A DNA stretch of 64,000 nucleotides from Elusimicrobiota bacterium (GCA_003140895.1 PLLH01000012.1:3661-67660), one strand, 5' to 3'. Shown: positions 568 through 28,958, counted from the first letter of the stretch. Numbers and translations are program-made. The notes: generated from the letters alone by a model not told the origin.

Positions 568-989
568 AATCTCTTCAGGAGCCTCTTTTCCTCCGTGTAA
601 AGTTGATAACGAATTTTTTTAAACTCCGGCGCGGCGGCCGGCGAAAAAACCTTGCTGAATTCTTCAAGAACGCGAACCGCTTCCTGGGCTCGCCTCATAT
701 TGGCGGCCGCCACATCCGAAAGACGCGTCCGGCCGGTTTCAACCACGGTTCGCCCGACGTCGGCTCGGCTGTCCCGGGCTTGAATTAATTCGCTGTAGCG
801 CGCCGCCGTAATCCGATGAAGCCCGTGACGAATCGCCCGTAAGCGAACGACCATCGGTTTATCATTCCACAGAAACCGCGCCGTGTCTTCAAGGACCCGA
901 AGTCCCTCGCGGGCCCGGTTTAAATTGGCGTCCAACAGACGCGCCGTGCTCAGATCAACAGGCCGTTTTTTTGTTCGAGCGACGGCCAT
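564..989 (-). CDS. hypothetical 141-aa protein translationally coupled to thiE (possibly a ThiD2-like ThiE-associated domain protein)
   Basis: ORF-track ORF. Its TGA stop overlaps the thiE ATG (ATGA at 564-567). Arg/Ala-rich with a conserved-looking LDANLNRAREGLRVLEDTARF motif. No confident family assignment by eye. Confidence 0.4.
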   Translation of the reverse strand: MAVARTKKRPVDLSTARLLDANLNRAREGLRVLEDTARFLWNDKPMVVRLRAIRHGLHRITAARYSELIQARDSRADVGRTVVETGRTRLSDVAAANMRRAQEAVRVLEEFSKVFSPAAAPEFKKIRYQLYTEEKRLLKRL

Positions 990-13629: not shown

Positions 13630-13757
13630 ATCTAAAGCTACAGTTAACAGCTTAATTAATCCAATCTTATAATTCGCCTCTATAAATCAATCAATTATAC
13701 CCATGAATTATTTGTGACAGCCTTGAATTTCTGCACATCCCCTGCCAAACTTAAAAT

Positions 13758-15323
13758 ATGAAGTTAACTGTTGAGTTCAAATTTCTAAGCCTTCTGACCA
13801 GCGCATTCCTGGCGCTATCAACTTCTATGGCTTCATTCGAACCCCTTCCCGTTGGCGGCCGAGCGGCCGGAATGGGCGAGGCCTACTCAGCGGTGGCCGA
13901 TGATGTCTTTTCTCTTTACTACAACCCCGCCGGCGTTCTGCAAATGAGCCGGCCGGAGTTTGGAACGTACTATTCCAGACTGTTTGTGGGGCTCACCGAC
14001 AACTCACAGATCAGCCGCACCTTTGTCGGTTATGCTCAACCGCTTGGAAGAGCCGGCCGGCTGGGAGGCATTGGAGCCAGTTACTTGGCGCTGGATCTAC
14101 CGGGGCTTTACAAAGAAGAAGCCATTGGGTTGACGTATGGAAGAGAGTTCGCCCATCTCTGGAACATCGGCGGCTCCCTGAAACTCCTTCGGAAAGCCAT
14201 CGGCTCCGACGAATACACAACGAACGCCATCAACCCCAATACCGGCATGGCCACGGGATCGGCGGATCCACTTCTCGCCGCCGGACGGTCTCAATCGGCG
14301 ATGGGCCTCGACTTGGGAGTTCAATATCGCTTTACGAGAGCGTACGCGCTGGGCGTTGCCGTCCGCAACATCAACGCCCCCAATATGGCGCTGGGAGACG
14401 GCACGGACAAAGCCCCCGCCGTGTGGACCGCTTCCATGGCGCGTAAACTTCGCGCCGGTTCCCTGGACCTGGAAATCATGAATTGGAAATCGACGGAAAA
14501 CAACATGCGCTTCTCTCTCGGCGGAGAAACCTGGTTTAAAAATGGCTTCGGCTTAAGAGCCGGCGGAAGCCTGGGGTCCCGGAATTACTCGACGGCGTCG
14601 TTCGGCGGCTCCTTCAAGTCGGAATCCTTCCAGTTTGATTACGCCATGATTTATCCCCTCCAGGGCGTTCAAGGGACGATCGGCATGCAGCAAGTCTCTG
14701 TGACGATTCGCTTGGGCAAACCCCCGGTCGACCCCCTGGAGAAACAACTCATTCAAGAAAAAGAAGAACGGATCCGTGCCGAGACCGAAGCCCGCTACGC
14801 CAAAGCGGAAAGCGACCGCTTGAAGAAACAGCTTTTCGCGCTCACGCAAGAAAAAACAACCGCTCAAAAAGATCGCGAGGAACGCGCCGCCCAGCAAACG
14901 CTTGAGGAAGCCCAAACCCAGCGAACGCGCCGCTCACGAACCACGAACGAAACGCAGACCGCCGCCGAAACCCGAAACCGTCTCTTCGCGGACTACACGA
15001 CGGCTCTGGCCGAATACAACACCAACGTTCGGCAAGGCGTCGGTCTTAAAGAGAAAAGGAAAATGCTCGAGAAGATTTTGGCCAAATTTAAAGACACCGG
15101 CGTGGACACCGCCACCCTCTCACGCGAGATGAAGAGCATCGACGCCGAAGAAACGCGCTCCGTGAAAGATTTCGAGCTCTCCATGAGCTTCTACCAGAAA
15201 CTGGTCCAACAAGGGGCGAGCGTCGAAGACCGAAGCAACATGCTGAAACGAATCATTCAGAAATACAAATGGACCGGCATTGACATCAATTCGGCTGAAA
15301 AAGAGATGAACAACTTAAAGTAA
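13758..15323 (+). CDS. FadL/PorV-like outer-membrane beta-barrel (paralog 2) with ~170-aa C-terminal coiled-coil extension
   Basis: 521 aa. Same N-terminal motif VGGRAAGMGEAYSAVADDVFSLYYNPAGV. C-terminal third is charged and coiled-coil-like (EKEERIRAETEARYAKAESDRLKKQL...). Confidence 0.55.
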   Translation: MKLTVEFKFLSLLTSAFLALSTSMASFEPLPVGGRAAGMGEAYSAVADDVFSLYYNPAGVLQMSRPEFGTYYSRLFVGLTDNSQISRTFVGYAQPLGRAGRLGGIGASYLALDLPGLYKEEAIGLTYGREFAHLWNIGGSLKLLRKAIGSDEYTTNAINPNTGMATGSADPLLAAGRSQSAMGLDLGVQYRFTRAYALGVAVRNINAPNMALGDGTDKAPAVWTASMARKLRAGSLDLEIMNWKSTENNMRFSLGGETWFKNGFGLRAGGSLGSRNYSTASFGGSFKSESFQFDYAMIYPLQGVQGTIGMQQVSVTIRLGKPPVDPLEKQLIQEKEERIRAETEARYAKAESDRLKKQLFALTQEKTTAQKDREERAAQQTLEEAQTQRTRRSRTTNETQTAAETRNRLFADYTTALAEYNTNVRQGVGLKEKRKMLEKILAKFKDTGVDTATLSREMKSIDAEETRSVKDFELSMSFYQKLVQQGASVEDRSNMLKRIIQKYKWTGIDINSAEKEMNNLK

Positions 15324-15338
15324 CCAAATTTAACTAGA

Positions 15339-15815
15339 ATGGCGATTCAATTGAGGCTCGTAATGAAGCAAAGTCAAAACGCATCCATCGGAATCCGGCG
15401 GGGACCCGCCCGACTAAGGAAAATCGCTTCCTGGCTTGTTTTTTCCGGCGTGATTTTTCTTGTGGCGGGGCTCTTGAACGCGGCCCTTCGCCTCCCCCTC
15501 TGGGCCGCTCCTCAATCCTTCGGAGAGATCAACCTCACTGAAGTGGCTCCGCGAATTATCACGCCCAACGGCGACCTCCAAAACGACGTCGCTTACTTTC
15601 GATTTGACGGGAGCCTGGCCGGACTTCCCATCGACACGTCCGTTCTCGATGTGAACGGCGCTAAGATTGCCAGCCTCAAACTCGACAGCTCGGAGACCAA
15701 CCTGCTTTGGGACGGAAAAGATGAAAGCGGGCGGGCCCTCCCCTCGGGCATCTACATCTACCAAATCTCCATTGGGAACCACCGCGCCACCGGCACTCTC
15801 GCCATCGCTCGATAG
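15339..15815 (+). CDS. small membrane-anchored protein with FlgD-Ig/T9SS-CTD-like C-terminal domain
   Basis: 158 aa. N-terminal TM helix. C-terminal ITPNGDLQNDVAYFRF...LLWDGKDESGRALPSGIYIYQI...TGTLAIAR matches the (T/S)PNGDG.ND ... WDG ... SG.Y.Y pattern of FlgD Ig-like sorting domains. Confidence 0.45.
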   Translation: MAIQLRLVMKQSQNASIGIRRGPARLRKIASWLVFSGVIFLVAGLLNAALRLPLWAAPQSFGEINLTEVAPRIITPNGDLQNDVAYFRFDGSLAGLPIDTSVLDVNGAKIASLKLDSSETNLLWDGKDESGRALPSGIYIYQISIGNHRATGTLAIAR

Positions 15816-15847
15816 AATTCTTCCCCCTTTACACTTTCTCCCCGCAT

Positions 15848-17482
15848 ATGGCACCATACACGCGTCCGATGAAGAAATTCCGTTCCGCGCCCTTTGTCTT
15901 GGGCTTTATCTCCCTCACCGTTCTCTTTTCCCGGTTGCCGCGCCTCGCCTGGAGCGCTGAGCCGCCGGCCCCCCGGATCTCTCGCATCACCATCGACGGA
16001 TCCAGCATTTTCGATCTCAACAGGCAAATCACTCTTCGACATTTCCCCTACACGTGGATCAACGTCCTTCATATTCAAACCAAGGAACAGATTATCCGCC
16101 AGGAACTCCTGTTAAAAGAAGGGGACCCCGTGGACGAGTTTCTTATTCATGAAACAGAACGGAACCTGCGCGCGCTGTCTTTCATCCGGTCCGCCCAAAT
16201 CGAACAACTCCCGCAAACCGATGGAACGGTGGCGTTGATGGTCCATGTGGGCGACTCCTGGACCACCGAACCTCAAATCAATACGTCAGGGATCAATAAA
16301 ATCGACACGGTGGAGGTAGGCTTTAAAGAGAAAAATTTCCTCGGATATGGGAAATCGGTGGGCGTTTTCTATCAGAAGGGCGTCGACTCAATCCAACGGG
16401 AATACCGCTATTTTGATCCCCGTTTTTTAGGAAGTCGATGGCAACTCACGGGGAACTACATCTCGCGCACCGGAGGGCTGGAAAAATTCGCCGAAATCAA
16501 CCGGCCCTTCTTCTCCGCCGATACCCGGTTCTCCGCCCGCACCTCTTACAACCAAATTGTCCAGCCCGTGGACGTGTTCCAAAACAACGTCAAAGTCTCG
16601 CAATTTGAACAAACCAAAGACATCAACGAAAGCTACATCGGAACGAAGGTGGGCGGAGGGCGCTCGTGGGTGGCTCATGAAGGAATCCGCTACAAATATG
16701 AAAGCCAGCATTTCGCGGCCACGGACAAAACAAACGGCGCTATTCCGATCCCCGAAAAATTTAAAACTCTTTTCTCCGATCTGGATATCAGCCGAACCCG
16801 GTTTATCGTTCTCACGCGCGTTGAAAAGATGACGCGCGTTGAAGACATCAACCTGGGCCCGCAATTTTCTCTCTCCCCAGGTTACTCTCCGAAACAATTC
16901 ACGGGCACCCGCGACAGCAGCGAATTCGAATCCACGTATGGCCAAAGTTTTCTCATCAATCAAATGCATCTGGCAACGACCCGATTTGAGATGAAAGGCC
17001 GGAATATTTTCACCCAACCCGAAAATGAACGCTATCTGGCCTCGGCGCAATACTACGACCGGCGTTACCATTTTCAAACCATGACGGCCAAAACCCGGCT
17101 GGAATGGGGGCAGCACTTGGACTCCGACAACCAAATCACGCTCGGGGGCAACAACGGCCTTCGCGCCTTCGCCGTGAATGACTTCAGCGGGAACAAAAGT
17201 TTTCTCTTTAACGCGGAAGATCGTATTTTTATCGTCGATGAAGCCTTTGAGCTGTTCGCGATCGGCGCGGCGGTCTTTTATGACGCCGGCTCGGTGTGGT
17301 CGGAAGGACAAACCATGTGCCTCTCGGACATCCACAGCGATGTGGGAGCAGGGCTGCGACTGGGACTCACGCGTTCCTCCTCTGAAGTCATCGTCCGGCT
17401 GGATTTCTCTTATCGCCTCCAACGATCGCCGGCCAACAGTGACAAATTTATCATCACCTTCGGGACCAGCCAGGCGTTTTAA
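15848..17482 (+). CDS. Omp85-family outer-membrane protein (BamA/TamA/TpsB-like; POTRA plus 16-strand barrel)
   Basis: 544 aa. Signal peptide. POTRA-like ISRITIDGSSIFD...LLLKEGDPVDEF. C-terminal beta-barrel region ending in aromatic-rich strands (...IITFGTSQAF). Confidence 0.65.
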   Translation: MAPYTRPMKKFRSAPFVLGFISLTVLFSRLPRLAWSAEPPAPRISRITIDGSSIFDLNRQITLRHFPYTWINVLHIQTKEQIIRQELLLKEGDPVDEFLIHETERNLRALSFIRSAQIEQLPQTDGTVALMVHVGDSWTTEPQINTSGINKIDTVEVGFKEKNFLGYGKSVGVFYQKGVDSIQREYRYFDPRFLGSRWQLTGNYISRTGGLEKFAEINRPFFSADTRFSARTSYNQIVQPVDVFQNNVKVSQFEQTKDINESYIGTKVGGGRSWVAHEGIRYKYESQHFAATDKTNGAIPIPEKFKTLFSDLDISRTRFIVLTRVEKMTRVEDINLGPQFSLSPGYSPKQFTGTRDSSEFESTYGQSFLINQMHLATTRFEMKGRNIFTQPENERYLASAQYYDRRYHFQTMTAKTRLEWGQHLDSDNQITLGGNNGLRAFAVNDFSGNKSFLFNAEDRIFIVDEAFELFAIGAAVFYDAGSVWSEGQTMCLSDIHSDVGAGLRLGLTRSSSEVIVRLDFSYRLQRSPANSDKFIITFGTSQAF

Positions 17483-17486
17483 TTGC

Positions 17487-20400
17487 TTAGGCCTGAATCA
17501 ATATTTTCCTGAAGGTTTCAAACATCCCCAATTGAGACGGCGCCAGCCGAATCGCCTGAAGCGTGTTAAGAATGACGAGGACGTCAAAACTGCGCTGCAG
17601 CGCTTCCCGGGTTGAACGGCCCAGCCCAAGCCCATCGAGATTAAAGAAATTTTCCGCCAGCGGGGCCTCATTTCGGAGACGGAAGCGGTTCACGCGCCCA
17701 GACACCTCTTTGGCCAGCGCTTCATCAGTCATGTCGGGTCCGTTCACCGCTCTCAGCAAACTCCACACTGAGGAATGCGCCTTCCCATTCTCAATAAAAA
17801 TATGTTGTTCCCGGATCGATGTTCCCAGCGTTTTTTCGATTTCACGCGTCAAGACCTCCACGTCCATTTGAGGATCAACAACCAAAATCAAACGGCCCAG
17901 ATGATTCCCCCGGCTTTCTCGCTGCCGTTGCGAGATGGATTGAAGGGCTTGCTCAGCCGCCGCTTTCAGCGTGACGGGAAGCCACTCGTAACTATCCAAA
18001 GGCTGCCCTGTTTCCGTCGTATAACCAAGGCTCTCAACGGAAACGAGGAAGCGGCTGACATCGTTCTTAGAAAGAATCATCGCCAAAATGCCCGCCAGAA
18101 ACGGCGCCACGCGAGCCACGTCGCCCCGCGTCATGGTTCCCTCGCCCACTTTTTTCCTTATCTCATCCCGTAACGCCTTCGCCAATTCCGACCCCGACAC
18201 CAAGGGATCCCCAGTTCCCCCCGCCATTTTTTCTCCAACGTTCAACGAGCGGATGGTTTCCTGATCCATGAACACCGCCAACACCTGATTCAACATCTGA
18301 GCTTTATTGCCATTGTTTTCCTGAACGATTCCGATGAGTTTCGAGGCCAAGGATGAACCGGGCGTCAGTTGGGGCGCGCTATTGTTAACGACGAGATGGA
18401 AAGCGGTGGAGACGAGAATGGGAATGGAAAAGAGGGAGAAAGTGGGAAACGCCATGATGAGCGGGATCGTGACGGCCGCGATCAAAATGGAAAGACCGGC
18501 GTTCACGGGAAGCGGAGGACCCCGCTCCGCGCGAGCCTCTTTATCAAGAGCCCACATGGACAAAACGATCACCCATTCCAGAATATGAATGGCCGCGAAG
18601 ACACCCCACACCCACCACGTCGCCGCTGTCAAATCCATCCCCTGCCCATTGAGAAGCGCCATCGCCCCAAAGGCCAGGCCATTTTCAAGCACAGGCGCGA
18701 CCCACCGGTCATACGCTCCCGACGAGAGCCGGCCGCTGAACATCGGAAGAACAATCGCTTTAAGCCCGATCAGGAGGCCGCCCCTTGAAACCGATTTCAA
18801 TTTTCCCAGAGTAAACCAGTCCTCCGCGTAAGGAAGCCAATTCTCGTTTCGGTGCAACACGGATCTCACGTCCCGGAGTTCGTGAATCGCCGTAGACAAA
18901 GACATCTCGCCCGCTATCATTTTTCTCATGGCCATATGAATTCGCAAATTATTCTTCAAATGATCCGGGAATGTATTGTTCAGGATGCAAGCGAGAGAAA
19001 AAATATCGGATTCGATCGTGGCGATTCCTCCGTCAAAACGATTTTTCGGCGTGTACCCGTCTGAGTGAATCGAGTCTCCAATTTCGTATGTGTGAACGAC
19101 GGGCACAACCGACATGACATCCAGAATCCGGACCCGAATTTTTCCGTCAGACCCTTTTTGAATTTTGATGTTACCTGGTTTCAAATCGCCGTGAAGGAAC
19201 CCGGCTTCGTGCCATTTCTGCATCGTCTCCAAAATGGCGATGGCCTCATCCAACGTCAACGGCTCTTCTTGCGCCCTGTTCCATAAATCTTTTTCCTCGA
19301 TCCACTCCATCAATAAGAAAGAACGGGGGAATTTTTTCCCGACCCCCATTCCGAGAAATTCCGGAGCGGAAACAACCCCTTTGTCGCTAAGATCCTTCAA
19401 TTTTCTCCCTTCGATCCGATTGAAAGCGATGGCATAAACCAACTCCGACAAAAATCGGGGCTCCCCATTGGACATGAGTTGACTGACCGCCCCCACCTTC
19501 ACGGCGATGGCCGGGCCATTGGGACCTCCCACTTCATACGCCTTATAGACCCGTCCAAACCCGCCTCCGTAGGGGCGTCCTTTGATTTCATACGTCTTAT
19601 TTTTTACGGTGACCTTGGTCCCTTGTGGGAGAGCCATGAGCGCTTTATCTATTTCTGTTTGATTCTTTTCCAAGATATACCAGAAGTTTTTTATGGCAGA
19701 CACGTCGTCCAGTTTCTTTTGAAACGGCATATTTCTCTGAGACCAAATAAATTTTTCGTCATAACGCGGGGATACCGTTTTCATCTCCGCATGAATGTCC
19801 CTCACCTCTTGATCCGACAATTGCGCCAATAAAAGATCCCACAATTCCCGCATTTCGCTTGGTTTGGTTTCCGGGACGGGTCCAACCGGGAGAGGAGGAG
19901 GCGATGTCCGAGTAGGCTTGGCCACCGCATCTCTGCCCAACAATTTGTCAAGCGAAGGTCCATAGGTCAGAATGCTGGCAAATGGCCTCCATCGCGGCGA
20001 AACGCCTTTCAACACGCCAGCGTTGTAAAGGACGTGGATTCCCGCTGAACACCAGAAGGCGTAATCGGAAATAAAAACCGGCATGAGAGAAGTGAAAGAA
20101 AGGGAGAAGACGGCGCCGAGGAAAGAACGAACAGTGAAATCCAAGACATCTTGCCGAAGATGAATCTGATTAAAAGCTTCGCGCCATCCACGCTCTTTAG
20201 CCCGCACAATCCACGCCACAATGGTGTGGGCAAATGAAAACGTAACGGTGGCCCAACCAAAACCAACCCCCAGTGCCAACGCAGGACTTAAACCAAATCC
20301 CGTCAAAACTGTTGGAATTGAGGATACCCCCCACTGATGGAAAACTTTGGCCTCCCATAAGGAAGAGACGACAACAATCAAATTCCAATAGAGAAAGGGA

Positions 20401-23400
20401 TGTGACATTTTGAGCCTCTGAATCAACGGCAACTCTGCCAAGACAGCCATCGGCTTCGGCTTATTTTGAGATATGAACTTCTCCAGTTCCCGAATGACCT
20501 GCGCGACATCTTCTGACTGAAGCGCGGGTTCCCCCCGTTCTGCTCTATCCTTTTGCTTTCGCAATGCGGGTGAACCGGCTTTTTTTCCACGCATCTCGTC
20601 ATATCGGATTTGCTCCTTGAGATAGTTCAAATTCTCCTCCAAAAGAGTCAAACCATCGGTAGAACTTCCAGAAAACGTTTTCAAAAAAGCTTTAAAAATA
20701 AACTCGTTATTCTCCTCCGTCTCTCCATAATTTCCATAAAAAGAGATCATCCGCAGAAGACATTTATCCAAACTGACTCTTCTATCCCCCAAATCGACCA
20801 TAACAGCCATCTCAGGAGGGGCAATAAGCGCCCAGGGGAGAAACTTAGCCAAAGGACCGACGGGCGCAGTGAGTTGGGAGCCAAGGCGACTCATCCCAAA
20901 AAAACGGGATTTACTCCTACCGGTTGTCCGAGTGATAATGAAATTTTTCTCGTGGATATCTTTTGGCATCTCGCCCAAGATCCTTGAAATTTCAAGAAGG
21001 CTCTCAACAGCCAACTGCCGATGCCGGGGCAGCAATTCCCTCTTTTCCTTGAGCTCTCTTAATGTCGGGCCGTCAATAAACTCTTCTAAATAAAATTCAA
21101 GATCCCCCCCTTCGTCGACTATTGAAAAATATTTTCCAAAACGCGGAACAAAATCTGTCTCTTCGGACAACAACTCAAGATCTGTCAACTCTATTTTCCT
21201 AATGTCACCGGGAGTTTTGGGCTTCTTGACGGCAACCATGACTTTAAATGGAGATGATTTTTTTAACTCAAAATCCACTCTAAAAACCAACTTATGTGTT
21301 CCCTCCTGATGAAATTTAAGACTAACTTTGCCGGTAAAATCTTCAAGCGCAATGTTATTTCGGGTTAGGTGATTTAAAAAATCCACCACAACTGCTGACT
21401 TATTCTTGAATATAAGATGGGAAATGGCGTGCGATAGACGCACGCTCAAAATGGCGATGTCTAATTCTTTAGGGTCAGTTGTAATGTCATGTGAATAATT
21501 AACTTCCAGTCGATGAAAAATGGATGCCAGCGGCCAATTCTTAAGTAATTGATTGAGCCGCTCCGTTCCCTTTTGAAGAACTCCGAAGTTGTATCCCCGG
21601 TGACTGAACCAAGCCCAGCCAAGGGCAAGGAAAAGGATTGCCGAGGAGACAAGGAGGAAGAGAGAAAAAGACGAAATCAGCGGAAGAGCGAAGAAGACGG
21701 CAAACAAGGGTGTGTGAAAAACGGTACCGGCAACGAAAAGCTTGGTGAGTCGCCACGGGGTTGGCGGAGCCTGGACAGGCGGCGCCTGAGCGTCCGGCGA
21801 TTGTCTCTGTATGTGAAGCGAGGTGAACACCAAGTTGCTCATCACACCTGCGAACACCGCCGCCGATTTATGATCGAACGTGGCTCCAAAGAAACCCAGA
21901 GCCCCTGCGTAGAACGCGGCGAAGAAGACAGCCACCAGCGCCGTCTCAAACAGCGGCGCGACCCGCGTCGAGATTTCATCATCAAGAATGGCTTCCGCGC
22001 CAAAAAGATTCCGAAGCGGATTCAGCAGGAACCGGGTGAATAACCGCGTGAGGCCCCAGGTGGCGGTAGGTGAAGAATTCCTAAATTTGGCGGGAAGACG
22101 GAAATCGGCAGGAGGCGCCCGGTCTTGAGCTGCTTGTTTTACCGCATTCAAAATCCCAAGCCCCGCGCCACCATCTCGAAACCGCTCCAGCACCGCATTC
22201 AAAACTGTTAACTGATCTTTAAGGAACTCTCGATCATGCGTCCACTCCATTTCGGGTTCGCCCCGTTGGATATGGGTTCGCTCATGAGTGGTGGCTTCGA
22301 TAAGTGTATAGAGAAGCCGCTGAAAATTTTCCCTCTCGGAGTTTGAAAAGGAGCGACCGCCCTTAATGAGAAGTTTGTGCAGGGTTTGGAGATCCTCATA
22401 GATGGCGCCCACATCCCAAGCGATATTAAACTGCCCTACCTGCGTATAGGCAATGGCGCCCCTTTTGGCTGACGAAAAGAACTCATGTCGGCATGCTTTT
22501 GCCACTGGCATAACAGCGTCAATCGGAGCCAACACCGCCTCAACCAATCTCTGCCAGGCCAAAAGAATGGACGCCTCGGGATCATTCGGGGAAACGGGAG
22601 AGGCGTTCACTTCCTCTCGGATATTCGCGGCAAAACCGCGGGCCTTGATGAGCAACTGCCCCATTTCTGCTTCGGCTTGAGCGCGCTTAATTTGTTCTTT
22701 CAGCCAATCGGGAAGTTGTTCCAAAATCTCCTTATTCTTGAGGCCCAAAATAATGGCATCAAAACATGAAATTTTCGTTCCTTGAATGGGAATCATAGGA
22801 AGAGACATTAAAAGCAGAATGGAATTTATTTCGGCATTGAGGCCGCGCGCATAAATCGACACATCATTGACTGGTTTCCCTTCCGCCACCCGCTTTGCAT
22901 CCTCGGCAATTCGGGTACCCTCTTTCGGCTTATACGTCGCGGCATTAATAATATAGTCATACGGCAACCGATCCTTAAGATCCAAACGTCCCAGTCCCAA
23001 AAGACGCCCTACGGCGGCCATCCCCGCCAAAGCCAAGGCCGGCTTCAATTCCTCTATCTTTTTTGCGCGCCCCACAAAATCTGTCCGTCCTTCGATGGGT
23101 TCAACATCCGCTTCCAGATTTAGAACAAACCCAAATTCCGAAAGGAGTTCTAAAAACAATCGAGGAATGGGATAGGTGAATTCACCGTTTAACTGGCACA
23201 TGTAAAATTGATTTAAATTAAATGCCTGTTCGCCCACGGCGGCATAAATCTGGATCGCTTCGCCGGTGGAACTTCGCTTTACTTCAGCCAAGGGTTCCAC
23301 CTTATCATTGACCAAAATGTTATTCCATACGACCCTCATCTTTTTCTTATCAAAGAGCCCCACATAGGAGCCTAAACGAACAAAAATTTCAGAAGCAAGA

Positions 23401-26400
23401 AGTCCCGGGTTGTCTGAGGTCTTGCGCCATTCCACCGTCGTGCCGGATTTTTGATTTGTCTGGTTTTGAACGACACGCATACGGACATCGACAAGACGGT
23501 CTCCCTGTCGGACCGGCGTCAAATAAACCACCGTGGTCACGCCGTTTTTGGTGGACCTGACCCTGACATCATCTCCAGAGCGGAATAACGTGTAGAACCC
23601 CTGGCCGAAATGAAGCCAATCCGACGACCACCCGCTGGCGCTTGGCTGGAGCAGTTTGCCGATGATCTCTTGAAGGTCCATTCCAATTCCTTCATCGGAC
23701 ATGGACACCGCCAGTTCTCCGCTATCTTCGACCCAGCTGTTCACCTGGAAAACCGGAACGCTCCCGTCCTTTGAACGCCTGCTTCGGCTCGCTTCATAGG
23801 CGTTGGTGACCACTTCTCTCAAGAAAGCGTATTCGTCGGTCGTCTGTTCATAGGCGCGGCGGATACTCACGCGCGCGCGTTCCTTTAATTCTTGGGGGGC
23901 GCGCCTTGATTTTTCAGACAGGGTTGGAAGATCGCCGGCATTCGTCACCGATTTGAATTGGGATTCGCTCTCTCTATTTTGACCCATCGCCAAAATCAAA
24001 TCAGAAACTTCGACTTCAACACTCTGCTGATCTGCGGCGCCAATGGCGGAGGGCGGTTTCGAGCCGAGAGGAGGGGAATCGCTGTAGGATTGATGAAGAT
24101 GAGCCGCCAATCGGGCGCTCAGCATTCCCCTGGTTTTAAGAATCTCTTGTAGATCCTTTAACTGAAAACGGTATAGATTAGAAATAATATCAGCTTGACC
24201 CCTTCGATTATCGGAGTTCAAAAAAGAAAACTCTTGTAAGAGATCCTTTGCTTCATTCTCGCTCAAACCCGACACCAAAGACTCAAAAAGCATATTGGCT
24301 TTTTTTACTAGACTCCAAATGCCCTTGTTATCGTTAGGACCAACAGGTTCCTTTTGATACAGGGAAAAAAGCAAACTCTTGTATACTTCAACCCAACCCA
24401 TGTTAGTCAGATATTCTGGAAGATGTCGAAACCGGGTTTTGAAATAATCTGTTTTCGATCGTTCATCAGGAGGCATAAAATAGTCCAGCAGGCTTTTAAT
24501 GAAGAATCCTCTTTCAGAAAATACAGTAAAGACTGCATCATGCATTCCCACCCCCCCATACCGGTGCCCAAGCCAATACATTTCAAAGACCAGAGGATTG
24601 TCAATTTTGTACCAATCTGCTTTCCCCTCAAGGTTTTTTTGGTACCTATCCATCAATTCACGATAGACCAAGTAGAGAACAACATCTTGAATAATGACGT
24701 TGCTGTAGCTCAGCAGGGATCCTTCTTCAATGAGGAGATTAAATTCATAAAAATTTTTATTTTCAATATGATATTTGCGTATCAACTCCTTCGCTTCAGC
24801 GGAGATAACCGGCATGATCGGTTTTCCACCGCTCGTAAACAGCGAGCGAAATCGGTCAGGGAAGGACTCCCAAAAACTCCGAGGAAGAAGATTTACAAGC
24901 TCATCGGGTGGATACAAAACATTCGATAATCTATCCCAAAGTATAAATTCCTCTCTCGTCCTTGCATCTTTAGTCCCTTGTGAAAAAAATCTGTGAAAAT
25001 TAAAAGAAGAATCATTCCCCTTGAGGCCGGCCGTCTCAAATCCTTCGGTCTCATGTGCGGATTGAAGAAGTAAAGGTTTTTCTGTCTGAATGAGAGGATC
25101 GATATCGTCCCCTTCCTGCGCGGCCCGGGCCACATCCGCCACCGCTTGAAGAGCCGCCAGCGCTTCATCTTGGGTCTCCGAATTTTGAATCGCTCCTCTA
25201 AGGGATGGATCGACCAGAAGGATTCCGCCTTTGGCCAACCTCGCCCCCATAGGTCCCTTGGATTGACTCAAACGAACATAGACAATCTGGCGGAATTGAC
25301 TGTCTCGCATCGAGTCCGGGATTATCTGTTGACCGCGAGGCAAAAGTTCTTTTCTGATGAAAAAGAGGTTGGCCTGGTTCGGCACCAACGACTCTCTTAA
25401 ACTCACGTCGTCCTCCAATACCAGCCAACTATTCTTAACCGATGATCGCTGGAGGAATCCCTCTACGTGAGACCTTAGGTTCTCCATTGGATCTGAAGAC
25501 ATTACTCTCGTTTTCCCCGGAGGCGTATCTTTTTGGAGAGATTCAACAACGGGATAAAGGAGGTTCGCCATTCGGCAAAAAAGATCGGGTCGAGAATCGA
25601 ATCTCTCAGCGAGGGTGTCGATAAGGCGTTCCAACGCTTTTAAAACCGCTTGAGTCGATTTGATTTTGTCTCTGTCGCGGGCATAGTCAAAAAGATCCTT
25701 GTGAAAATCCAACACGGCCTCACCGAACTCACCAAAGGTTTCAAACCGAACAGTGGTGAAATAGACCCCGTTGATCAGGATATGGACTCCCGTTTCTTGG
25801 CCCCGGCGGGTCGTGGCCGTCTGAGGAGGAACTCTCATGCTGACGGCGCCGTCGACATCCGCAATTCTCTTAACACCCTCCTGAGAATTCAATATCCACG
25901 GTTTTCCATCCATCACCTCAATGACGGCATCTGACTTATGACGTAAAACTTTCTTGGCTTCCGTTAAGACGGAGTCTCTTTGAATTTGAGATGAAATGAT
26001 TTCAACTTCAGAACCATGACCAAGACGCGCCGCCTCTCCGGGAGAAAGTTTTAAGCAACTCATCATCAACTGACCGTTGTCTCCAAGAGAAAATTCAAAA
26101 CGATTGGCTTCCATGCCGGACACCGTCCAGATGACGACTTTGTCATCAGGTCCGGTCAAATAAGAAAAAATAGACAAAAATCCAGTGCCAAACCGGCCCG
26201 TGGTTCCTGACTGCTTAAAATTTCCACCCTCTCCGGGGTTCAAGAGCTTGGTCAAATCAGCGAGGGAAATACCCTCTCCCCAATCACGGACAACGGCCCG
26301 GCCATCTTGAATGGTGAATTGCACCTTTTTTTCCGAGTTAAATTTACTTCTGAAATTAAGACGCTCCTCCGTATCAATCGCGTTAAGAAGAATTTCAATA

Positions 26401-28958
26401 ATGGGACGGGCGCTCAAATTGGTGAACTGTTTATGAGTGAGGGAACGGATGGCGCGTCCAAACGTAACCACAGCCGACTCCGAAACGCGCGTCAATAGCT
26501 TGAGGACGGTATTCTTGCCCCGCCGGACGGCTTCGCCAATCAATTCAGTCGGGGTTCCTTGCACGGCCGCCACGAATTCGACGACGGGGAACCTTTCCTC
26601 CCGCGCTGCACGTTGGGCTATGGCATCCACGATCTGCGACTTTAATTCTCCGGATTTTCCCGTTGGCATTCCGGCCGGTTTGACGGCCGCCATGATTTTA
26701 TCCGCCAACGTATCAAAATTTTCGGGATGATCTTTATCGATGGGGAAATTTTGGAGAGCCTGTTCAATTTCTCTGCCCAACAATTTTCTGGGCGGAAGCC
26801 CGTGGGCCATAATGCTGGCCAACGGCATCCACCGCGGCAAAACGCCCGTCAAAATGCCCAAATTGGTAGAGGAATGGATCGCCATGGAAATCATTGCGGC
26901 CCACCCCAAACTCATTCCCGGGATGAGGAAAGGCGTCCCCAGACCCAACCCCACCAAGAAAAGAAGGGCCATCCGCGACGGTGTGCGATTGGGGTGAGCC
27001 CAGGCAAAAAAGGCGGCACTTAAGAGGAGAGCCACGGGTCCCACAAAAGGAACAGAGGGCAATAAGGTCTGCGCCAAGGGCAAAATCAATTGAAACACCA
27101 ATTCCCAATTGACCCCGAGAACCAAATAAATTTTTTCTTTTAAAGATGTCTGAATTTGGACATTGTCTCTGGCCGCGTCCGCCTTATCCAGAATATCCAC
27201 ATGCGCTTTAAAAAGCCGTTGTCCCATTTGAATAACAACATCGGAGGTATTTTGTATCCGGGCTGTCAGACTCGCCATCACTCGGAAAAATGTGGAGGGG
27301 TGCGTGCTATGAACAAAATCCGGACATACAAAAAGTTTTTCGCCGGAGAGTATTTTGTCGAGGGGCGTTTTCTCGCGGGCGAAAATGGATAAGTAGGCCG
27401 TTCCACTGCCCTCTTCAACTTTGGTGATTTTGGGAGAAACAACGACGTAGGAAATTTTTTGTTCTTTGAACATCTGGGCGATTTCGGGGGTGTGAAAACC
27501 GCCGGTGACGAGGACAACGGATTTCCCCCTCTCCCCCTCTCCCTTAAATAGCTTCTCCACCATTTTCTCGCTGCGGATTTCGGCTTCGCGGTAGAACGTC
27601 TCGAAAGGCGACAAATCCATGCTGTGCGAGAGCGCTTGGTACTTTTTCCATTCTTTGGGTGTCAGCGCAAACTCAATCAGTTTTCCGGCGAGTGAAAGAT
27701 ATTCGCTTCGCTTTATCAAATTCTTCTGCTCATCCGTTTGAACCAGGCGCTGAACGATGACGTTCTCAAGCTTTTCCACCGCATCAAATAGTTTGTCCGC
27801 TTTGATCCCATCGGTCAGAAGCACATAGCGGATGTAGTCATCAAACGCCGGGGTTTGCCTTAAATGGATTCCTTTCCGTTCGCAAAGCCGTTTTAATCCT
27901 TCGTAATAATCTCCAAAACTGAGTCTCCCCGTGCGATAAGCCAAGCTATTGGCGACAAGACTCGAAATCTCTTTTTCATTTAATACCCGGGTTAATTTTT
28001 CCAGAACTTGTTTTCGCTCATTCTCAACCCTCTTGAAATCGAGTGTCGATTCCATCTTAAACGCTTCAAGAAATTGGTCGACGACAACGTCATTGTCGAG
28101 ACGACCGGCGGAGAGTTTCTTAACGTAAGACCCAAGACCGACATCCCCCCGCTGATAGGCGTCCCGTAAATTGTCGAACTGGGTGAGTTCTGTCGAAAAA
28201 ACGGTTCGTTTGGACTCAGTCAGGTTTCGTTTAAATTCACCCATTTGTTTGATGACGTTCTTTTTCAATTCCCGCGAGGTCAAATACGCCTGGACGTTCG
28301 CTTTGTAGTGCTCCTGATCATCCACGCCCACGAACAAAGGCGGCTCATTGGCACTTGTCATCCCGACGAAGGAAGGGGCGGACAGGAGATTCTTATCGAG
28401 GTACGCCTCCGCGACTTGTTTTGTGATCTCTTTATCGGAGAAGGCCCGAAAGCGCGTGAAATCAAACCGGCTGAAAGCGCCTTCCACGCCGACGAGACCG
28501 ACTTGCCCCTGATCCATCAACTCTTGCAGAACGGAGACGATGTTGGTTTGCGCTTCGGGGTTTAAATGAACGTCTTGGACAAGAACCACCGCCGGCTTCG
28601 CCGAATCCCCGGAATCATAAACATCCTGAATGGAACCCGTGTTGGAAGGGATTGAAGCCACGAGCTCTTGGATTTTCTTTGAATACGTGGACGTTTTTCC
28701 TCTCAACGAGGGGTTCCATTTGAGCGCCGAGGGAAGAGTGGAATCGACACCCGGCATTTGATTGAGGAGTGTTCTCGTGGAGAGCGCTGAACCGGCCAGG
28801 GAGGCGGGAAGTGACGCCAGCTGCTTTTCTTGCCGCTCCATCGCGCGGCGGCGCTCCGTCCAAATATTCGTTTCGGAAGCGGATCCCAACACCACTTGAG
28901 AGGTGAAGAAGAAAACAGCAAGAGAAAGGGCTAGGACTTTCTTTGGTGTGTTTTCCAT
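17487..28958 (-). CDS. giant (3,823 aa) polytopic multidomain membrane protein: signal peptide + TraB/GumN-like domain + 4 TM modules + 2 Hsp90/sacsin-type GHKL ATPase modules + degenerate kinase-like + Ser/Thr kinase domain
   Basis: Single uninterrupted 11,472-nt ORF with no competing long frames. Motifs read directly: EILLNAIDTEE / DWGEGIS / GRFGTGF; EVVTNAYEAS / SDEGIGM / HFGQGFYTLF; GRPYGGGFGRVYKAYEV...AIAVK...HGDLKPGNIKI...DSIHSDGYTPKNRFDGGIATIESDIFSL; DIHEKNFII; TM modules ending in PRW(M/R)P(L/F)ASI...KLLGR. Confidence 0.8.
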   Translation of the reverse strand: MENTPKKVLALSLAVFFFTSQVVLGSASETNIWTERRRAMERQEKQLASLPASLAGSALSTRTLLNQMPGVDSTLPSALKWNPSLRGKTSTYSKKIQELVASIPSNTGSIQDVYDSGDSAKPAVVLVQDVHLNPEAQTNIVSVLQELMDQGQVGLVGVEGAFSRFDFTRFRAFSDKEITKQVAEAYLDKNLLSAPSFVGMTSANEPPLFVGVDDQEHYKANVQAYLTSRELKKNVIKQMGEFKRNLTESKRTVFSTELTQFDNLRDAYQRGDVGLGSYVKKLSAGRLDNDVVVDQFLEAFKMESTLDFKRVENERKQVLEKLTRVLNEKEISSLVANSLAYRTGRLSFGDYYEGLKRLCERKGIHLRQTPAFDDYIRYVLLTDGIKADKLFDAVEKLENVIVQRLVQTDEQKNLIKRSEYLSLAGKLIEFALTPKEWKKYQALSHSMDLSPFETFYREAEIRSEKMVEKLFKGEGERGKSVVLVTGGFHTPEIAQMFKEQKISYVVVSPKITKVEEGSGTAYLSIFAREKTPLDKILSGEKLFVCPDFVHSTHPSTFFRVMASLTARIQNTSDVVIQMGQRLFKAHVDILDKADAARDNVQIQTSLKEKIYLVLGVNWELVFQLILPLAQTLLPSVPFVGPVALLLSAAFFAWAHPNRTPSRMALLFLVGLGLGTPFLIPGMSLGWAAMISMAIHSSTNLGILTGVLPRWMPLASIMAHGLPPRKLLGREIEQALQNFPIDKDHPENFDTLADKIMAAVKPAGMPTGKSGELKSQIVDAIAQRAAREERFPVVEFVAAVQGTPTELIGEAVRRGKNTVLKLLTRVSESAVVTFGRAIRSLTHKQFTNLSARPIIEILLNAIDTEERLNFRSKFNSEKKVQFTIQDGRAVVRDWGEGISLADLTKLLNPGEGGNFKQSGTTGRFGTGFLSIFSYLTGPDDKVVIWTVSGMEANRFEFSLGDNGQLMMSCLKLSPGEAARLGHGSEVEIISSQIQRDSVLTEAKKVLRHKSDAVIEVMDGKPWILNSQEGVKRIADVDGAVSMRVPPQTATTRRGQETGVHILINGVYFTTVRFETFGEFGEAVLDFHKDLFDYARDRDKIKSTQAVLKALERLIDTLAERFDSRPDLFCRMANLLYPVVESLQKDTPPGKTRVMSSDPMENLRSHVEGFLQRSSVKNSWLVLEDDVSLRESLVPNQANLFFIRKELLPRGQQIIPDSMRDSQFRQIVYVRLSQSKGPMGARLAKGGILLVDPSLRGAIQNSETQDEALAALQAVADVARAAQEGDDIDPLIQTEKPLLLQSAHETEGFETAGLKGNDSSFNFHRFFSQGTKDARTREEFILWDRLSNVLYPPDELVNLLPRSFWESFPDRFRSLFTSGGKPIMPVISAEAKELIRKYHIENKNFYEFNLLIEEGSLLSYSNVIIQDVVLYLVYRELMDRYQKNLEGKADWYKIDNPLVFEMYWLGHRYGGVGMHDAVFTVFSERGFFIKSLLDYFMPPDERSKTDYFKTRFRHLPEYLTNMGWVEVYKSLLFSLYQKEPVGPNDNKGIWSLVKKANMLFESLVSGLSENEAKDLLQEFSFLNSDNRRGQADIISNLYRFQLKDLQEILKTRGMLSARLAAHLHQSYSDSPPLGSKPPSAIGAADQQSVEVEVSDLILAMGQNRESESQFKSVTNAGDLPTLSEKSRRAPQELKERARVSIRRAYEQTTDEYAFLREVVTNAYEASRSRRSKDGSVPVFQVNSWVEDSGELAVSMSDEGIGMDLQEIIGKLLQPSASGWSSDWLHFGQGFYTLFRSGDDVRVRSTKNGVTTVVYLTPVRQGDRLVDVRMRVVQNQTNQKSGTTVEWRKTSDNPGLLASEIFVRLGSYVGLFDKKKMRVVWNNILVNDKVEPLAEVKRSSTGEAIQIYAAVGEQAFNLNQFYMCQLNGEFTYPIPRLFLELLSEFGFVLNLEADVEPIEGRTDFVGRAKKIEELKPALALAGMAAVGRLLGLGRLDLKDRLPYDYIINAATYKPKEGTRIAEDAKRVAEGKPVNDVSIYARGLNAEINSILLLMSLPMIPIQGTKISCFDAIILGLKNKEILEQLPDWLKEQIKRAQAEAEMGQLLIKARGFAANIREEVNASPVSPNDPEASILLAWQRLVEAVLAPIDAVMPVAKACRHEFFSSAKRGAIAYTQVGQFNIAWDVGAIYEDLQTLHKLLIKGGRSFSNSERENFQRLLYTLIEATTHERTHIQRGEPEMEWTHDREFLKDQLTVLNAVLERFRDGGAGLGILNAVKQAAQDRAPPADFRLPAKFRNSSPTATWGLTRLFTRFLLNPLRNLFGAEAILDDEISTRVAPLFETALVAVFFAAFYAGALGFFGATFDHKSAAVFAGVMSNLVFTSLHIQRQSPDAQAPPVQAPPTPWRLTKLFVAGTVFHTPLFAVFFALPLISSFSLFLLVSSAILFLALGWAWFSHRGYNFGVLQKGTERLNQLLKNWPLASIFHRLEVNYSHDITTDPKELDIAILSVRLSHAISHLIFKNKSAVVVDFLNHLTRNNIALEDFTGKVSLKFHQEGTHKLVFRVDFELKKSSPFKVMVAVKKPKTPGDIRKIELTDLELLSEETDFVPRFGKYFSIVDEGGDLEFYLEEFIDGPTLRELKEKRELLPRHRQLAVESLLEISRILGEMPKDIHEKNFIITRTTGRSKSRFFGMSRLGSQLTAPVGPLAKFLPWALIAPPEMAVMVDLGDRRVSLDKCLLRMISFYGNYGETEENNEFIFKAFLKTFSGSSTDGLTLLEENLNYLKEQIRYDEMRGKKAGSPALRKQKDRAERGEPALQSEDVAQVIRELEKFISQNKPKPMAVLAELPLIQRLKMSHPFLYWNLIVVVSSLWEAKVFHQWGVSSIPTVLTGFGLSPALALGVGFGWATVTFSFAHTIVAWIVRAKERGWREAFNQIHLRQDVLDFTVRSFLGAVFSLSFTSLMPVFISDYAFWCSAGIHVLYNAGVLKGVSPRWRPFASILTYGPSLDKLLGRDAVAKPTRTSPPPLPVGPVPETKPSEMRELWDLLLAQLSDQEVRDIHAEMKTVSPRYDEKFIWSQRNMPFQKKLDDVSAIKNFWYILEKNQTEIDKALMALPQGTKVTVKNKTYEIKGRPYGGGFGRVYKAYEVGGPNGPAIAVKVGAVSQLMSNGEPRFLSELVYAIAFNRIEGRKLKDLSDKGVVSAPEFLGMGVGKKFPRSFLLMEWIEEKDLWNRAQEEPLTLDEAIAILETMQKWHEAGFLHGDLKPGNIKIQKGSDGKIRVRILDVMSVVPVVHTYEIGDSIHSDGYTPKNRFDGGIATIESDIFSLACILNNTFPDHLKNNLRIHMAMRKMIAGEMSLSTAIHELRDVRSVLHRNENWLPYAEDWFTLGKLKSVSRGGLLIGLKAIVLPMFSGRLSSGAYDRWVAPVLENGLAFGAMALLNGQGMDLTAATWWVWGVFAAIHILEWVIVLSMWALDKEARAERGPPLPVNAGLSILIAAVTIPLIMAFPTFSLFSIPILVSTAFHLVVNNSAPQLTPGSSLASKLIGIVQENNGNKAQMLNQVLAVFMDQETIRSLNVGEKMAGGTGDPLVSGSELAKALRDEIRKKVGEGTMTRGDVARVAPFLAGILAMILSKNDVSRFLVSVESLGYTTETGQPLDSYEWLPVTLKAAAEQALQSISQRQRESRGNHLGRLILVVDPQMDVEVLTREIEKTLGTSIREQHIFIENGKAHSSVWSLLRAVNGPDMTDEALAKEVSGRVNRFRLRNEAPLAENFFNLDGLGLGRSTREALQRSFDVLVILNTLQAIRLAPSQLGMFETFRKILIQA

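Follow-up and report, generated by a model that had tools for sequence, protein, structure and literature searches.

Giant multi-enzyme proteins have been described in Omnitrophota, and the relevant passages of two preprints (bioRxiv 10.1101/2023.11.21.568195; bioRxiv 10.64898/2026.06.07.730766) report membrane-anchored proteins with many transmembrane segments set between enzyme domains of diverse kinds, which include HATPase_c and clusters of kinases/phosphotransferases, and many segments that carry no annotation. Here we analyse a 64,000-nucleotide stretch of DNA (the window) from an Elusimicrobiota bacterium, in which one gene encodes a giant modular polytopic membrane protein, with soluble enzyme domains strung between repeated four-helix membrane modules. 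Two of these soluble domains have a protein-kinase-like fold. The reading that we favour, with somewhat better than even confidence, is that a Hanks-type kinase domain and a separate, likely active kinase-like family (the upstream domain, 'upK') are independent modules of this membrane protein.

Architecture of the giant protein

All features noted in this study are housed in one uninterrupted open reading frame, which was listed and translated, and every motif quoted in an earlier sequence-only reading of this DNA could be located in its translation. The identical protein is found on 3-4 public metagenome contigs.

17487..28958, minus strand: giant open reading frame, 3,823 aa
26784..27173, minus strand: membrane module 1, aa 596-725
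21519..21998, minus strand: membrane module 2, aa 2321-2480, directly upstream of upK
20409..21446, minus strand: upstream protein-kinase-like domain (upK), aa 2505-2850, unannotated family
19959..20408, minus strand: membrane module 3, aa 2851-3000, separating the two kinase domains
18819..19658, minus strand: Hanks-type Ser/Thr protein kinase domain, aa 3101-3380
18324..18803, minus strand: membrane module 4, aa 3386-3545, downstream of the Hanks-type domain

The modular architecture is established. Each membrane module was delimited by hydropathy, by an alignment of modules and by a module HMM, and the HMM finds four copies of the four-helix module within the reading frame. Module 3 comprises about four helices with E, FxxxH and HxxxN motifs, and its hydrophobic character across aa ~2851-3000 bears out the earlier proposal that a TM module lies between the two kinase domains. 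Across an alignment of 12 modules, the P, H and N residues and the HxxxN motif are invariant, most modules have FxxxH, and one Glu is found in place of EExxxR; 3-4 repeats of the same module type occur in the proteins P0047 and P0065. A match to the Pfam Rce1-like family (PF02517) was obtained for module 1 only of eight modules, covering profile positions 20-89 of 93 at E 0.0059 (17.3 bits versus a gathering score of 22.4), and a PDB profile search gave no matches. These modules are at most tentatively assigned as CPBP / CAAX-protease-like.

The placement of the soluble domains relative to the membrane can be read in two ways. When modules 1 and 3 are read as four helices, every K/R residue falls in the flanks or the middle loop, which is consistent with cytoplasmic soluble domains beside the modules. 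However, the N-terminus of the protein resembles a cleavable signal peptide, and such a peptide combined with even-numbered membrane modules would place all soluble domains, including the kinases, outside the cytoplasm. There is no ATP outside the cytoplasm. Tentatively, we take the kinase-fold domains to be cytoplasmic.

The downstream Hanks-type kinase domain

Judged by its sequence, the region spanning aa 3101-3380 is a bacterial Ser/Thr protein kinase domain of the Hanks type, though a divergent one. Its homology is established by Pfam Pkinase (PF00069), by the kinases StkP and PknA and by a profile built with its relatives. The Pkinase model covers profile positions 10-190 of 263 with E 1.1e-7 and a score of 32.0 bits, which is just above the gathering score of 31.7. 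A phmmer search of the PDB returned StkP at 4.8e-7 and PknA at 1.3e-5 (StkP, PknA and PknB together span 5e-7 to 5e-3), and in the alignments the motifs of the G-loop, VAIK, HxDLKPxN and αF fall into register. Far stronger values were reached when the domain and nine related domains of other giant proteins were combined into one profile (StkP 6e-43, PknB 2e-39), and PADLOC kinase models matched at up to 9e-15. The following elements were located in the domain.

19536..19580, minus strand: glycine-rich loop GRPYGGGFGRVYKAY, aa 3127-3141, aligned with the PknA G-loop
19497..19499, minus strand: VAIK lysine K3154, invariant column K54 of alignment A2, aligned with VAVK of PknA
19161..19193, minus strand: catalytic loop HGDLKPGNIKI, aa 3256-3266, with D3258, K3260 and N3263; D, K, P and N invariant in A2
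19113..19121, minus strand: DVM in place of DFG, aa 3280-3282, with metal-binding Asp D3280, invariant column D180 of A2
18993..19013, minus strand: αF motif ESDIFSL, aa 3316-3322, with D3318, aligned with SDIYAMG of StkP; column D218 invariant in A2

The AIAVK motif that contains the lysine occupies aa 3150-3154, and the segment DSIHSDGYTPKNRFDGGIATIESDIFSL corresponds to aa 3295-3322. The catalytic loop was correctly recognised in the sequence-only reading, but the range 19150-19195 given for it is out of frame when read from 19195; nucleotides 19104-19196 read LHGDLKPGNIKIQKGSDGKIRVRILDVMSVV. That reading also called this kinase intact. Its family and its catalytic residues (the VAIK Lys, the catalytic Asp and the metal-binding Asp of DVM) are upheld by the Pkinase HMM and by the alignment, whereas the domain is less intact than that wording suggests, given the DVM and HGD motifs and a degenerate APE region. 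Specifically, the DVM aligns with DFG, DLG and DPG of the relatives, such that the Asp is kept and Phe-Gly is changed to Val-Met. No APE motif was found, since the region reads GYTPKN, without Glu at the aligned position. In addition, an 11-residue insertion in the αC region leaves two candidates for the αC Glu, with E3183 chosen by HMMER and E3172 by MAFFT.

Because the catalytic loop carries HGD, with Gly replacing Arg, this domain is a non-RD kinase. Still preserved in it are the Lys that anchors ATP, an αC Glu, the Asp and Asn of the catalytic loop, the Lys typical of Ser/Thr kinases and the Asp that binds Mg. It would most likely phosphorylate Ser/Thr, and phosphorylation of its activation loop would not be needed. 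Nevertheless, DVM in place of DFG together with the degenerate APE region means that the domain could itself be impaired, and it seems appropriate to ask whether the roles of the two kinase-fold domains are the reverse of those first proposed, with upK as the active enzyme and the Hanks-type domain as an impaired scaffold or pseudokinase. Both of these departures, the αC insertion with its two candidate Glu residues, and a Pfam score just 0.3 bits over threshold would fit such an arrangement. However, K3154, D3258, K3260, N3263 and D3280 are all present and in invariant columns, and the His of HGD and the hydrophobic residue after the Asp would fill regulatory-spine positions. We regard the reversed arrangement as quite improbable, and we continue to treat the Hanks-type domain as a divergent kinase.

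The upstream kinase-like domain

The upstream domain is a separate, hitherto unannotated family of the protein-kinase-like (PKL) superfamily, and thus a new family in a known superfamily. The window copy matched nothing in Pfam, NCBIfam or a PDB sequence search, including at E <= 1 for curated families, and no member of the family reached a curated family threshold. An exhaustive HMMER search recovered 83 cluster representatives, 11 of them below 1e-30. Many of these representatives are fragments, and the family is almost confined to very long multi-domain proteins, with most hits in giant proteins. Weak matches of individual members were to kinase families only, led by ABC1 (7 of 24) and followed by Pkinase, APH, RIO1, RfaY, LanL, Bud32 and UbiB. 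The best E for the ABC1 model (PF03109) was 3.5e-5, with the window copy unmatched and none of eight members matching when re-scanned singly.

The kinase-like fold that had been proposed for this domain is established by structure prediction and by profile comparison. An AF2 model (pLDDT 84.3, pTM 0.83, from an input alignment of only 24 sequences) has the two lobes of a kinase, including a five-stranded N-lobe with αC, a hinge and a helical C-lobe. Foldseek returned 575 PDB matches to this model at E <= 1e-3, and the best 50 of the 575 are all protein kinases. The best structural matches include Bud32, RIO and kinases of the APH/CAK type, and PknB, Bud32 and YtaA are tied as structurally nearest, so that no one known family stands out. 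When the family was compared by hhalign with the Hanks-type alignment, the probability was 96.6% (E 6e-10, 158 columns), with all catalytic motifs in register.

21282..21305, minus strand: β1-β2 loop EGTHKLVF, aa 2552-2559, a degenerate glycine loop with conserved G2553, K2556 and V2558
21225..21227, minus strand: β3 lysine K2578 (VAVK motif)
21189..21191, minus strand: αC glutamate E2590
20943..20966, minus strand: catalytic loop PKDIHEKN, aa 2665-2672, with D2667 and N2672
20934-20960, minus strand: DIHEKNFII, aa 2667-2675, the upstream motif quoted in the sequence-only reading
20808..20921, minus strand: ~38-aa insertion between catalytic loop and DxG, aa 2680-2717
20787..20795, minus strand: DxG motif DLG, aa 2722-2724, the DFG equivalent, with D2722

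Members of the family begin with an extension of two helices at the N-terminus and have a nucleotide loop with one glycine and a conserved Lys. Their catalytic loop is P-x-D-x-H-x-x-N, metal would be bound by V-D-x-G, the helical C-lobe is distinctive, and the signatures EG-x-H-K-x-V-F, Y-x-EEFI-x-G, P-x-D-x-H-x-x-N-F and V-M-V-D-I-G recur among members. A clear glycine loop is indeed lacking, as had been noted: EGTHKLVF has one Gly and lies between model strands E37-48 and E53-61. Its G, K and V are conserved in 74, 75 and 69 of 78 copies, respectively. A loop with one glycine is unusual.

This domain had been called degenerate and likened to a pseudokinase, with DIHEKNFII in place of HRDLKPxN. 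We find that DIHEKN, rather than being a decayed HRDLKPxN, belongs to the conserved D-x-H-x-x-N catalytic loop of the family, which hhalign aligns with the Hanks-type H-x-D-x-K-P-x-N, and that the catalytic Lys, the catalytic Asp and the DFG-type Asp are all kept, each in 73-74 of 78 copies. Specifically, K2578, which hhalign aligns with the Hanks-type VAIK Lys, is Lys in 74/78; E2590, within model helix H84-96, is Glu in 73/78; D2667 and N2672 are conserved in 74/78 and 73/78; and both the Asp and the Gly of the DLG, which aligns with DFG, are conserved in 73/78. Given that every phosphotransfer residue is conserved across the family, upK is probably catalytically active, as an atypical kinase or an ATPase, and not a pseudokinase. 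The upK of a near-identical environmental strain, with 7 synonymous substitutions and 1 conservative one relative to the window copy, is in line with this.

The domain also lacks an activation loop, because only ~8 residues separate the DxG from the next helix in both alignment and model. In this same material, the activation segment, the P+1 loop, the APE motif and the αF/αG substrate-binding platform are all absent. These absences weigh against upK being a genuine protein kinase, possibly one that phosphorylates the giant protein itself at other sites, as does the catalytic-loop His (D-x-H-x-x-N) at the position where Ser/Thr kinases have Lys. The profile-profile match to Hanks-type domains from the same proteins, and the recruitment of the upK family by jackhmmer from the Hanks-type domain, point the other way, and we consider a protein-kinase role unlikely, though deserving of some weight. 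As an atypical enzyme, upK would either phosphorylate a small molecule or work as a self-contained ATPase, much as APH/CAK, Bud32 or RIO do. The suggestion that this domain is APH-like came closer, given the missing activation loop and the APH/CAK-type kinases among the best structural matches. The APH model (PF01636) yields nothing for the window copy at E <= 1 and matches only 2 of 24 members, with a best E of 0.2.

Relationship of the two kinase-fold domains

The sequence-only reading also saw in this locus a pair reminiscent of receptor-kinase regulation. On such a model upK, as a dead pseudokinase or regulatory APH-like domain, would control the downstream kinase across the membrane module, much as in receptor-kinase or JAK-like pairs. 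Some evidence is in keeping with this arrangement. The two domains are neighbours here, ~10 relatives combine both, and upK lacks the canonical GxGxxG loop and the His and Arg of HRD. Furthermore, the lineage-specific insertion beside the active site, which among aligned relatives occurs only in P0002, is common only to the window copy and its closest relative, has a model pLDDT < 50 at residues 180-193, and might disturb the active site. However, GxGxxG and HRD are missing in many active atypical kinases (RIO, Bud32, APH), and the presence of all five catalytic residues in the window copy, with conservation in ~94% of the 78 family copies, is not what a family of pseudokinases would show. Nor is a regulatory pair supported by the distribution of the domains. 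Additional Hanks-type domains occur in only ~10 of 83 upK representatives, counts that are lower bounds because many representatives are fragmentary; most copies have no such partner, and where both types are present their order and copy number vary, with some reversed. We judge control by a dead upK to be very improbable. The two domains would instead be independent modules that are merely neighbours in this protein, rather than a conserved regulatory pair.

Comparison with known systems

Relative to the Omnitrophota giants, which exceed 10-100 kaa in the passages cited, the window protein is small (3.8 kaa), and no SecA-DEAD domain was detected in it. Unlike those proteins, its neighbour gene and closest homolog point to a relative of Candidatus Obscuribacterium magneticum, in Elusimicrobiota. 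Neither the upK family nor the E / FxxxH / HxxxN module is described in the passages searched in the two preprints (bioRxiv 10.1101/2023.11.21.568195; bioRxiv 10.64898/2026.06.07.730766). The modules differ from CPBP / Rce1-like intramembrane metalloproteases in having one Glu rather than EExxxR and a sole Pfam match that is below threshold, but they share the motif order of these enzymes (type II CAAX prenyl protease, Abi), with Glu in helix 1, FxxxH in helix 2 and HxxxN in helix 4.

The Hanks-type domain resembles StkP, PknA and PknB in that the G-loop, VAIK Lys, αC, H-x-D-L-K-P-x-N, metal-binding Asp and αF Asp all align; its DLKPGN is of the Ser/Thr type, and like PknB-type kinases it adjoins the membrane. 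It departs from these kinases in carrying HGD rather than HRD, DVM rather than DFG, a degenerate APE and the αC insertion, and in having no PASTA or other known sensor domain. Instead of preceding a single transmembrane helix, this domain lies deep in a 3,823-aa protein amid multi-helix modules.

For upK, the appropriate comparison is with the atypical PKL families that lack an activation loop, namely Bud32, RIO, ABC1/UbiB and the APH/CAK-type kinases (YtaA/CotI, MTR kinase, homoserine kinase II and NahK). It shares with them the β3 Lys / αC Glu pair, a D-x-x-x-x-N catalytic loop, a D-x-G metal site and a chain that runs straight from DxG into a helix, and its N-terminal helical extension is like that of RIO and ABC1. 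What sets it apart from all of these families is a set of sequence signatures and a C-terminal helical bundle of its own.

The kinase-fold domains of the giant protein

All of the motifs under study reside in one uninterrupted minus-strand ORF of 3,823 codons (17487..28958), and the exact giant protein is found in three or four public metagenome contigs. Translation places every motif quoted in the sequence-only reading at the amino acid position given for it there. The claim that the catalytic loop of the downstream domain can be verified on the DNA holds for the in-frame read, LHGDLKPGNIKIQKGSDGKIRVRILDVMSVV, although the range cited for it (19150-19195) is out of frame. Amino acid numbers below refer to the giant ORF.

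Kinase-fold domains and quoted motifs of the giant ORF
nt 20409-21446 (aa 2505-2850), minus strand: upstream domain, here called upK
aa 2667-2675, minus strand: DIHEKNFII of the upstream domain
nt 18819-19658 (aa 3101-3380), minus strand: downstream Hanks-type domain
aa 3127-3141, minus strand: downstream-domain motif GRPYGGGFGRVYKAY
aa 3150-3154, minus strand: AIAVK of the downstream domain
nt 19161-19193 (aa 3256-3266), minus strand: HGDLKPGNIKI catalytic loop of the downstream domain
aa 3295-3322, minus strand: DSIHSDGY...DIFSL segment of the downstream domain

The upstream domain gave no match to Pfam or NCBIfam at E <= 1, its sequence matched PDB entries only at the level of chance (e.g. 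histone H2A, E 0.2), and word-indexed searches returned zero homologs both with upK alone and with its family alignment. Exhaustive HMMER searching with upK recovered 83 representatives at E <= 1e-3 (clusters at 50% identity), 55 of them below 1e-10 and 11 below 1e-30. Their hosts are uncultured bacteria, and the domains are carried mostly by proteins of 1,000-7,691 residues. The shared motifs run from the nucleotide loop to αC as E-G-x-H-K-x-V-F-K-V, (L/V)-A-x-K and E-x-x-D-L, and onward as Y-x-E-E-F-I-x-G, P-x-D-x-H-x-x-N-F-I and V-M-V-D-(I/L)-G. When searched against the PDB, the family profile produced a single alignment, to LIMK1, that was sub-significant (E 0.56) but correctly registered.

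AlphaFold prediction of upK from the single sequence was unusable (pLDDT 37.5), and prediction with the family alignment yielded a confident model (pLDDT 84.3, pTM 0.83). From the N-terminus onward, this model comprises a pair of helices, a sheet of five strands accompanied by an αC helix, and a hinge, followed by helices αD and αE, the catalytic loop, a β7-β8 pair and a helical C-lobe. A Foldseek comparison with the PDB returned 575 matches at E <= 1e-3, the best 50 of which are all protein kinase domains. Profile-profile comparison of the upK family alignment with an alignment of the downstream domain and its relatives gave a probability of 96.6% (E 6e-10, 158 columns), with the nucleotide loop, β3 Lys, αC Glu, hinge, catalytic loop and DFG/DxG all aligned. 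Weak matches obtained by scanning the family member by member were exclusively to kinase families, including ABC1 in 7 of 24 scanned members (best 3.5e-5) as well as Pkinase, APH, RIO1, choline kinase, RfaY, LanL/LanKC kinase domains, MAD6, UbiB and Bud32. We set aside a precomputed ABC1 match of the family representative P0002 because it is located outside the upK domain of that protein. The kinase-like fold proposed for the upstream domain is therefore borne out by the model, the Foldseek search and the profile comparison, and the alternative of a non-kinase fold fails.

Catalytic residues of the upstream domain

A second part of the original proposal was that upK might be a pseudokinase. 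Residue conservation was counted over 78 copies of the domain.

Conserved residues of upK (copies retaining the residue, out of 78)
G2553, nucleotide loop: 74
K2556, nucleotide loop: 75
K2578, β3 Lys: 74
E2590, αC Glu: 73
D2667, catalytic Asp: 74
N2672, catalytic Asn: 73
D2722, DxG Asp: 73
G2724, DxG Gly: 73

All eight residues are present in the window copy. Retention of the catalytic set both there and in the family argues for selection for catalysis, and we no longer apply the pseudokinase label to a domain whose key residues are kept in 73-75 of 78 copies. More generally, a domain should not be called a pseudokinase simply because its catalytic loop is non-canonical and it lacks GxGxxG.

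Compared with classical protein kinases, upK has a nucleotide loop with a single Gly and a conserved Lys (G-x-x-K), a Pro at the position of the HRD His, and a His at the position of the Ser/Thr-type Lys, which gives D-x-H-x-x-N. The next helix begins only about 8 residues after DxG, so that upK is without an activation loop, a P+1 loop or an APE motif. Our best reading of these sequence features is that upK would be an active phosphotransferase or ATPase of an atypical, activation-loop-less kind. Between the catalytic loop and DxG, about 38 extra residues are inserted in the window copy and in P0002, its closest relative; this insertion is absent from the other aligned members and was modelled at pLDDT < 50.

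A near-identical environmental contig from another metagenome (ENA ERZ28656406 scaffold_16653, positions 1-2764) corresponds to window 18837-21640 at 99.2-100% identity. Across aa 2468-2839 it shows seven synonymous changes and a single V-to-I replacement relative to the window, a small sample that points the same way as selection acting on upK. Split gene calls on this contig might be mistaken for frameshifts and pseudogenisation, but we reject this explanation because they trace to a stretch of N and a gap of 41 nt.

The downstream Hanks-type domain

Assignment of the downstream domain is straightforward. Its Pfam Pkinase match scores 32.0 bits against a gathering score of 31.7 (E 1.1e-7), and PDB sequence searching recovers StkP (4.8e-7), PknA (1.3e-5), PknB and others, with the G-loop, VAVK, H-x-D-L-K-P-G-N and the αF 'SDIxSxG' in register. 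A word-indexed homology search with this domain as the query returned only a 95%-identical fragment. Nine related Hanks-type domains were retrieved from other giant proteins, and the profile built from these ten sequences matches StkP at 6e-43 and PknB at 2e-39 in the PDB. PADLOC Ser/Thr kinase models match the same residues (up to 9e-15). A role in a defence system, as might be suggested by the PD-T4-6, MkoA and mad6 matches among them, was rejected because all fall within the generic Ser/Thr kinase domain and thus reflect kinase homology.

This domain had been described as an intact Hanks-type kinase, and for the most part that description holds. No residue that bears the chemistry is missing, and the columns invariant among the ten domains are K3154 (β3 Lys), D3258, K3260, P3261, N3263, D3280 (DFG Asp) and D3318 (αF Asp). 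However, the domain departs from the canon in three places. It reads HGD in place of HRD and is thus a non-RD kinase, its DFG position is DVM (DFG, DLG or DPG in relatives), and its APE position reads GYTPKN. In addition, αC carries an 11-residue insertion, which makes both E3172 and E3183 candidates for the αC Glu. From the retained residues, we infer that the domain is catalytically active. Hanks-type kinases are commonplace among bacteria, and this domain taken alone is routine.

Co-occurrence of the two domain types

The suggestion that the two domains form a pseudokinase/kinase pair reminiscent of receptor-kinase regulation is not supported by the family. With an HMM of the upK family, a single copy is detected in 75 proteins and a pair of copies in 3. 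About 10 of the 83 representatives also have additional Hanks-type domains: four in P0052, two in P0059, and one each in P0068, P0007, P0037, P0006, P0056 and P0069. These counts are lower bounds, as many representatives are fragments. The domain order of the window is reversed in P0052 and P0059, where the Hanks-type domains precede the upK-type domain. The two domain types look like shuffled modules rather than a fixed unit, and this pattern leaves the receptor-kinase analogy unsupported.

Membrane modules and topology

Four hydrophobic modules, each readable as four helices, punctuate the giant protein, and the third lies between the two kinase domains. Three of the four are followed by a juxtamembrane motif, W/R-x-P-[L/F]-A-S-I-[F/L/M], which is also found after modules in the relatives P0003 and P0004.

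Hydrophobic modules and juxtamembrane motifs
aa ~596-725, minus strand: module 1
nt 26805-26825 (aa 712-718), minus strand: juxtamembrane motif after module 1
aa 2321-2480, minus strand: module 2
nt 21519-21539 (aa 2474-2480), minus strand: juxtamembrane motif after module 2
aa 2851-3000, minus strand: module 3
nt 19968-19988 (aa 2991-2997), minus strand: juxtamembrane motif after module 3
aa 3386-3545, minus strand: module 4

P0047 and P0065 contain three or four modules of the same types, and P0034 contains two. Alignment with the modules of relatives shows that a Pro and H-x-x-x-N are invariant, and that a helix 1 Glu and a helix 2 F-x-x-x-H are mostly conserved. This order (E / FxxxH / HxxxN) is that of CPBP/Rce1-like intramembrane proteases, to which the modules can be assigned only tentatively. 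A Pfam Rce1-like match occurs in module 1 only and is below threshold (E 0.0059, 17.3 vs 22.4 bits), and a profile of the modules had no matches in the PDB. The juxtamembrane motif follows 6 of 12 modules, compared with about 0.01 expected by chance, and may either form an interfacial helix or mark a processing site. One speculative scenario is that the giant protein is a membrane polyprotein whose CPBP-type modules would cut at the juxtamembrane motifs, freeing or re-positioning enzyme cassettes that include active upK kinases. The motif order of the modules and the enrichment of the juxtamembrane motif agree with this scheme, which we nevertheless consider improbable.

Topology predictions point in two directions. 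When modules 1 and 3 are read as four helices, every Lys and Arg falls within the middle loop or one of the flanks and the other two loops have none, a distribution that agrees with flanking domains in the cytoplasm. The N-terminus of the giant protein, however, resembles a cleavable signal peptide, a feature conserved in relatives, and such a start combined with even-numbered modules would put all soluble parts outside the cytoplasm.

Other regions and the genomic neighbourhood

Beyond this signal-peptide-like start lies an N-terminal domain (window 27339-28661, aa ~100-540) that is common to the N-termini of about 25 other giant proteins; its sole family hint is a faint ChaN/Tiki match (PF04187, E 0.056). 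If this domain is exported, a cytoplasmic location of the ATP-using domains would be in conflict with it. Two GHKL-ATPase-like domains score near or below curated thresholds.

GHKL-ATPase-like domains
nt 26157-26408 (aa 851-934), minus strand: HATPase_c_3 / sacsin N-terminal-like
nt 23430-23822 (aa 1713-1843), minus strand: HATPase_c

The otherwise unannotated stretch from the second of these to membrane module 2 contains a single HExxH motif (HERTH, window 22272-22286, aa 2225-2229). The C-terminal domain (window 17490-18323, aa 3546-3823) has no family match and is shared with the C-terminus of P0002 (5e-50), a 5,218-aa 'hypothetical protein' of Candidatus Obscuribacterium magneticum.

The window is that of a diderm bacterium, and among the neighbours are a class-A β-lactamase-like gene, Omp85, OmpA and MTHFR; no tRNA or Rfam features were found within it. 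The MTHFR shares 67% identity with its counterpart in the MAG 'Candidatus Obscuribacterium magneticum', a member of Elusimicrobiota according to NCBI. This MAG also holds the closest homolog of upK, so that the window probably derives from a relative of its lineage. No relatives of the whole giant protein were found in a scan of GTDB genomes. ORFs adjoining the giant gene on the plus strand (12700-17482) have weak outer-membrane or type IX secretion-like matches (PorV, TraF_2, CHU_C / FlgD_ig), and this stretch also encodes the Omp85 family protein, whose convergent gene ends 5 nt from the giant ORF stop codon. A second very long ORF (55219-63972, minus strand) encodes at least 2,917 aa and is open at the window end; it has no Pfam match at E <= 0.01. 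We rejected the idea that it is a paralogue of the giant ORF, as blastp was empty and the kinase and module HMMs did not match it.

Novelty and comparison with known systems

Divergent kinase-like families turn up regularly, and it is appropriate to ask what distinguishes this one. No model of upK is present in the 2025 Pfam-A or 2026 NCBIfam copies, and its closest NCBI member (MCB4756477.1) is labelled 'hypothetical protein'. We rate upK as a probable new family inside the protein-kinase-like superfamily. The family is notable for combining a well-conserved catalytic set with an unusual nucleotide loop, and for residing mostly in very long membrane-punctuated proteins. If active, upK would constitute a new branch of the microbial kinome and would provide a handle on the role of these proteins.

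Its setting is less novel. Two reports on Omnitrophota (bioRxiv 10.1101/2023.11.21.568195; bioRxiv 10.64898/2026.06.07.730766) describe long proteins in which many transmembrane segments separate diverse enzyme domains, with HATPase and 'kinase/phosphotransferase' content. The general architecture of the giant protein is thus already known, from another phylum and at larger sizes. Compared with the Omnitrophota giants described there, the protein studied here belongs to a different phylum and is smaller.
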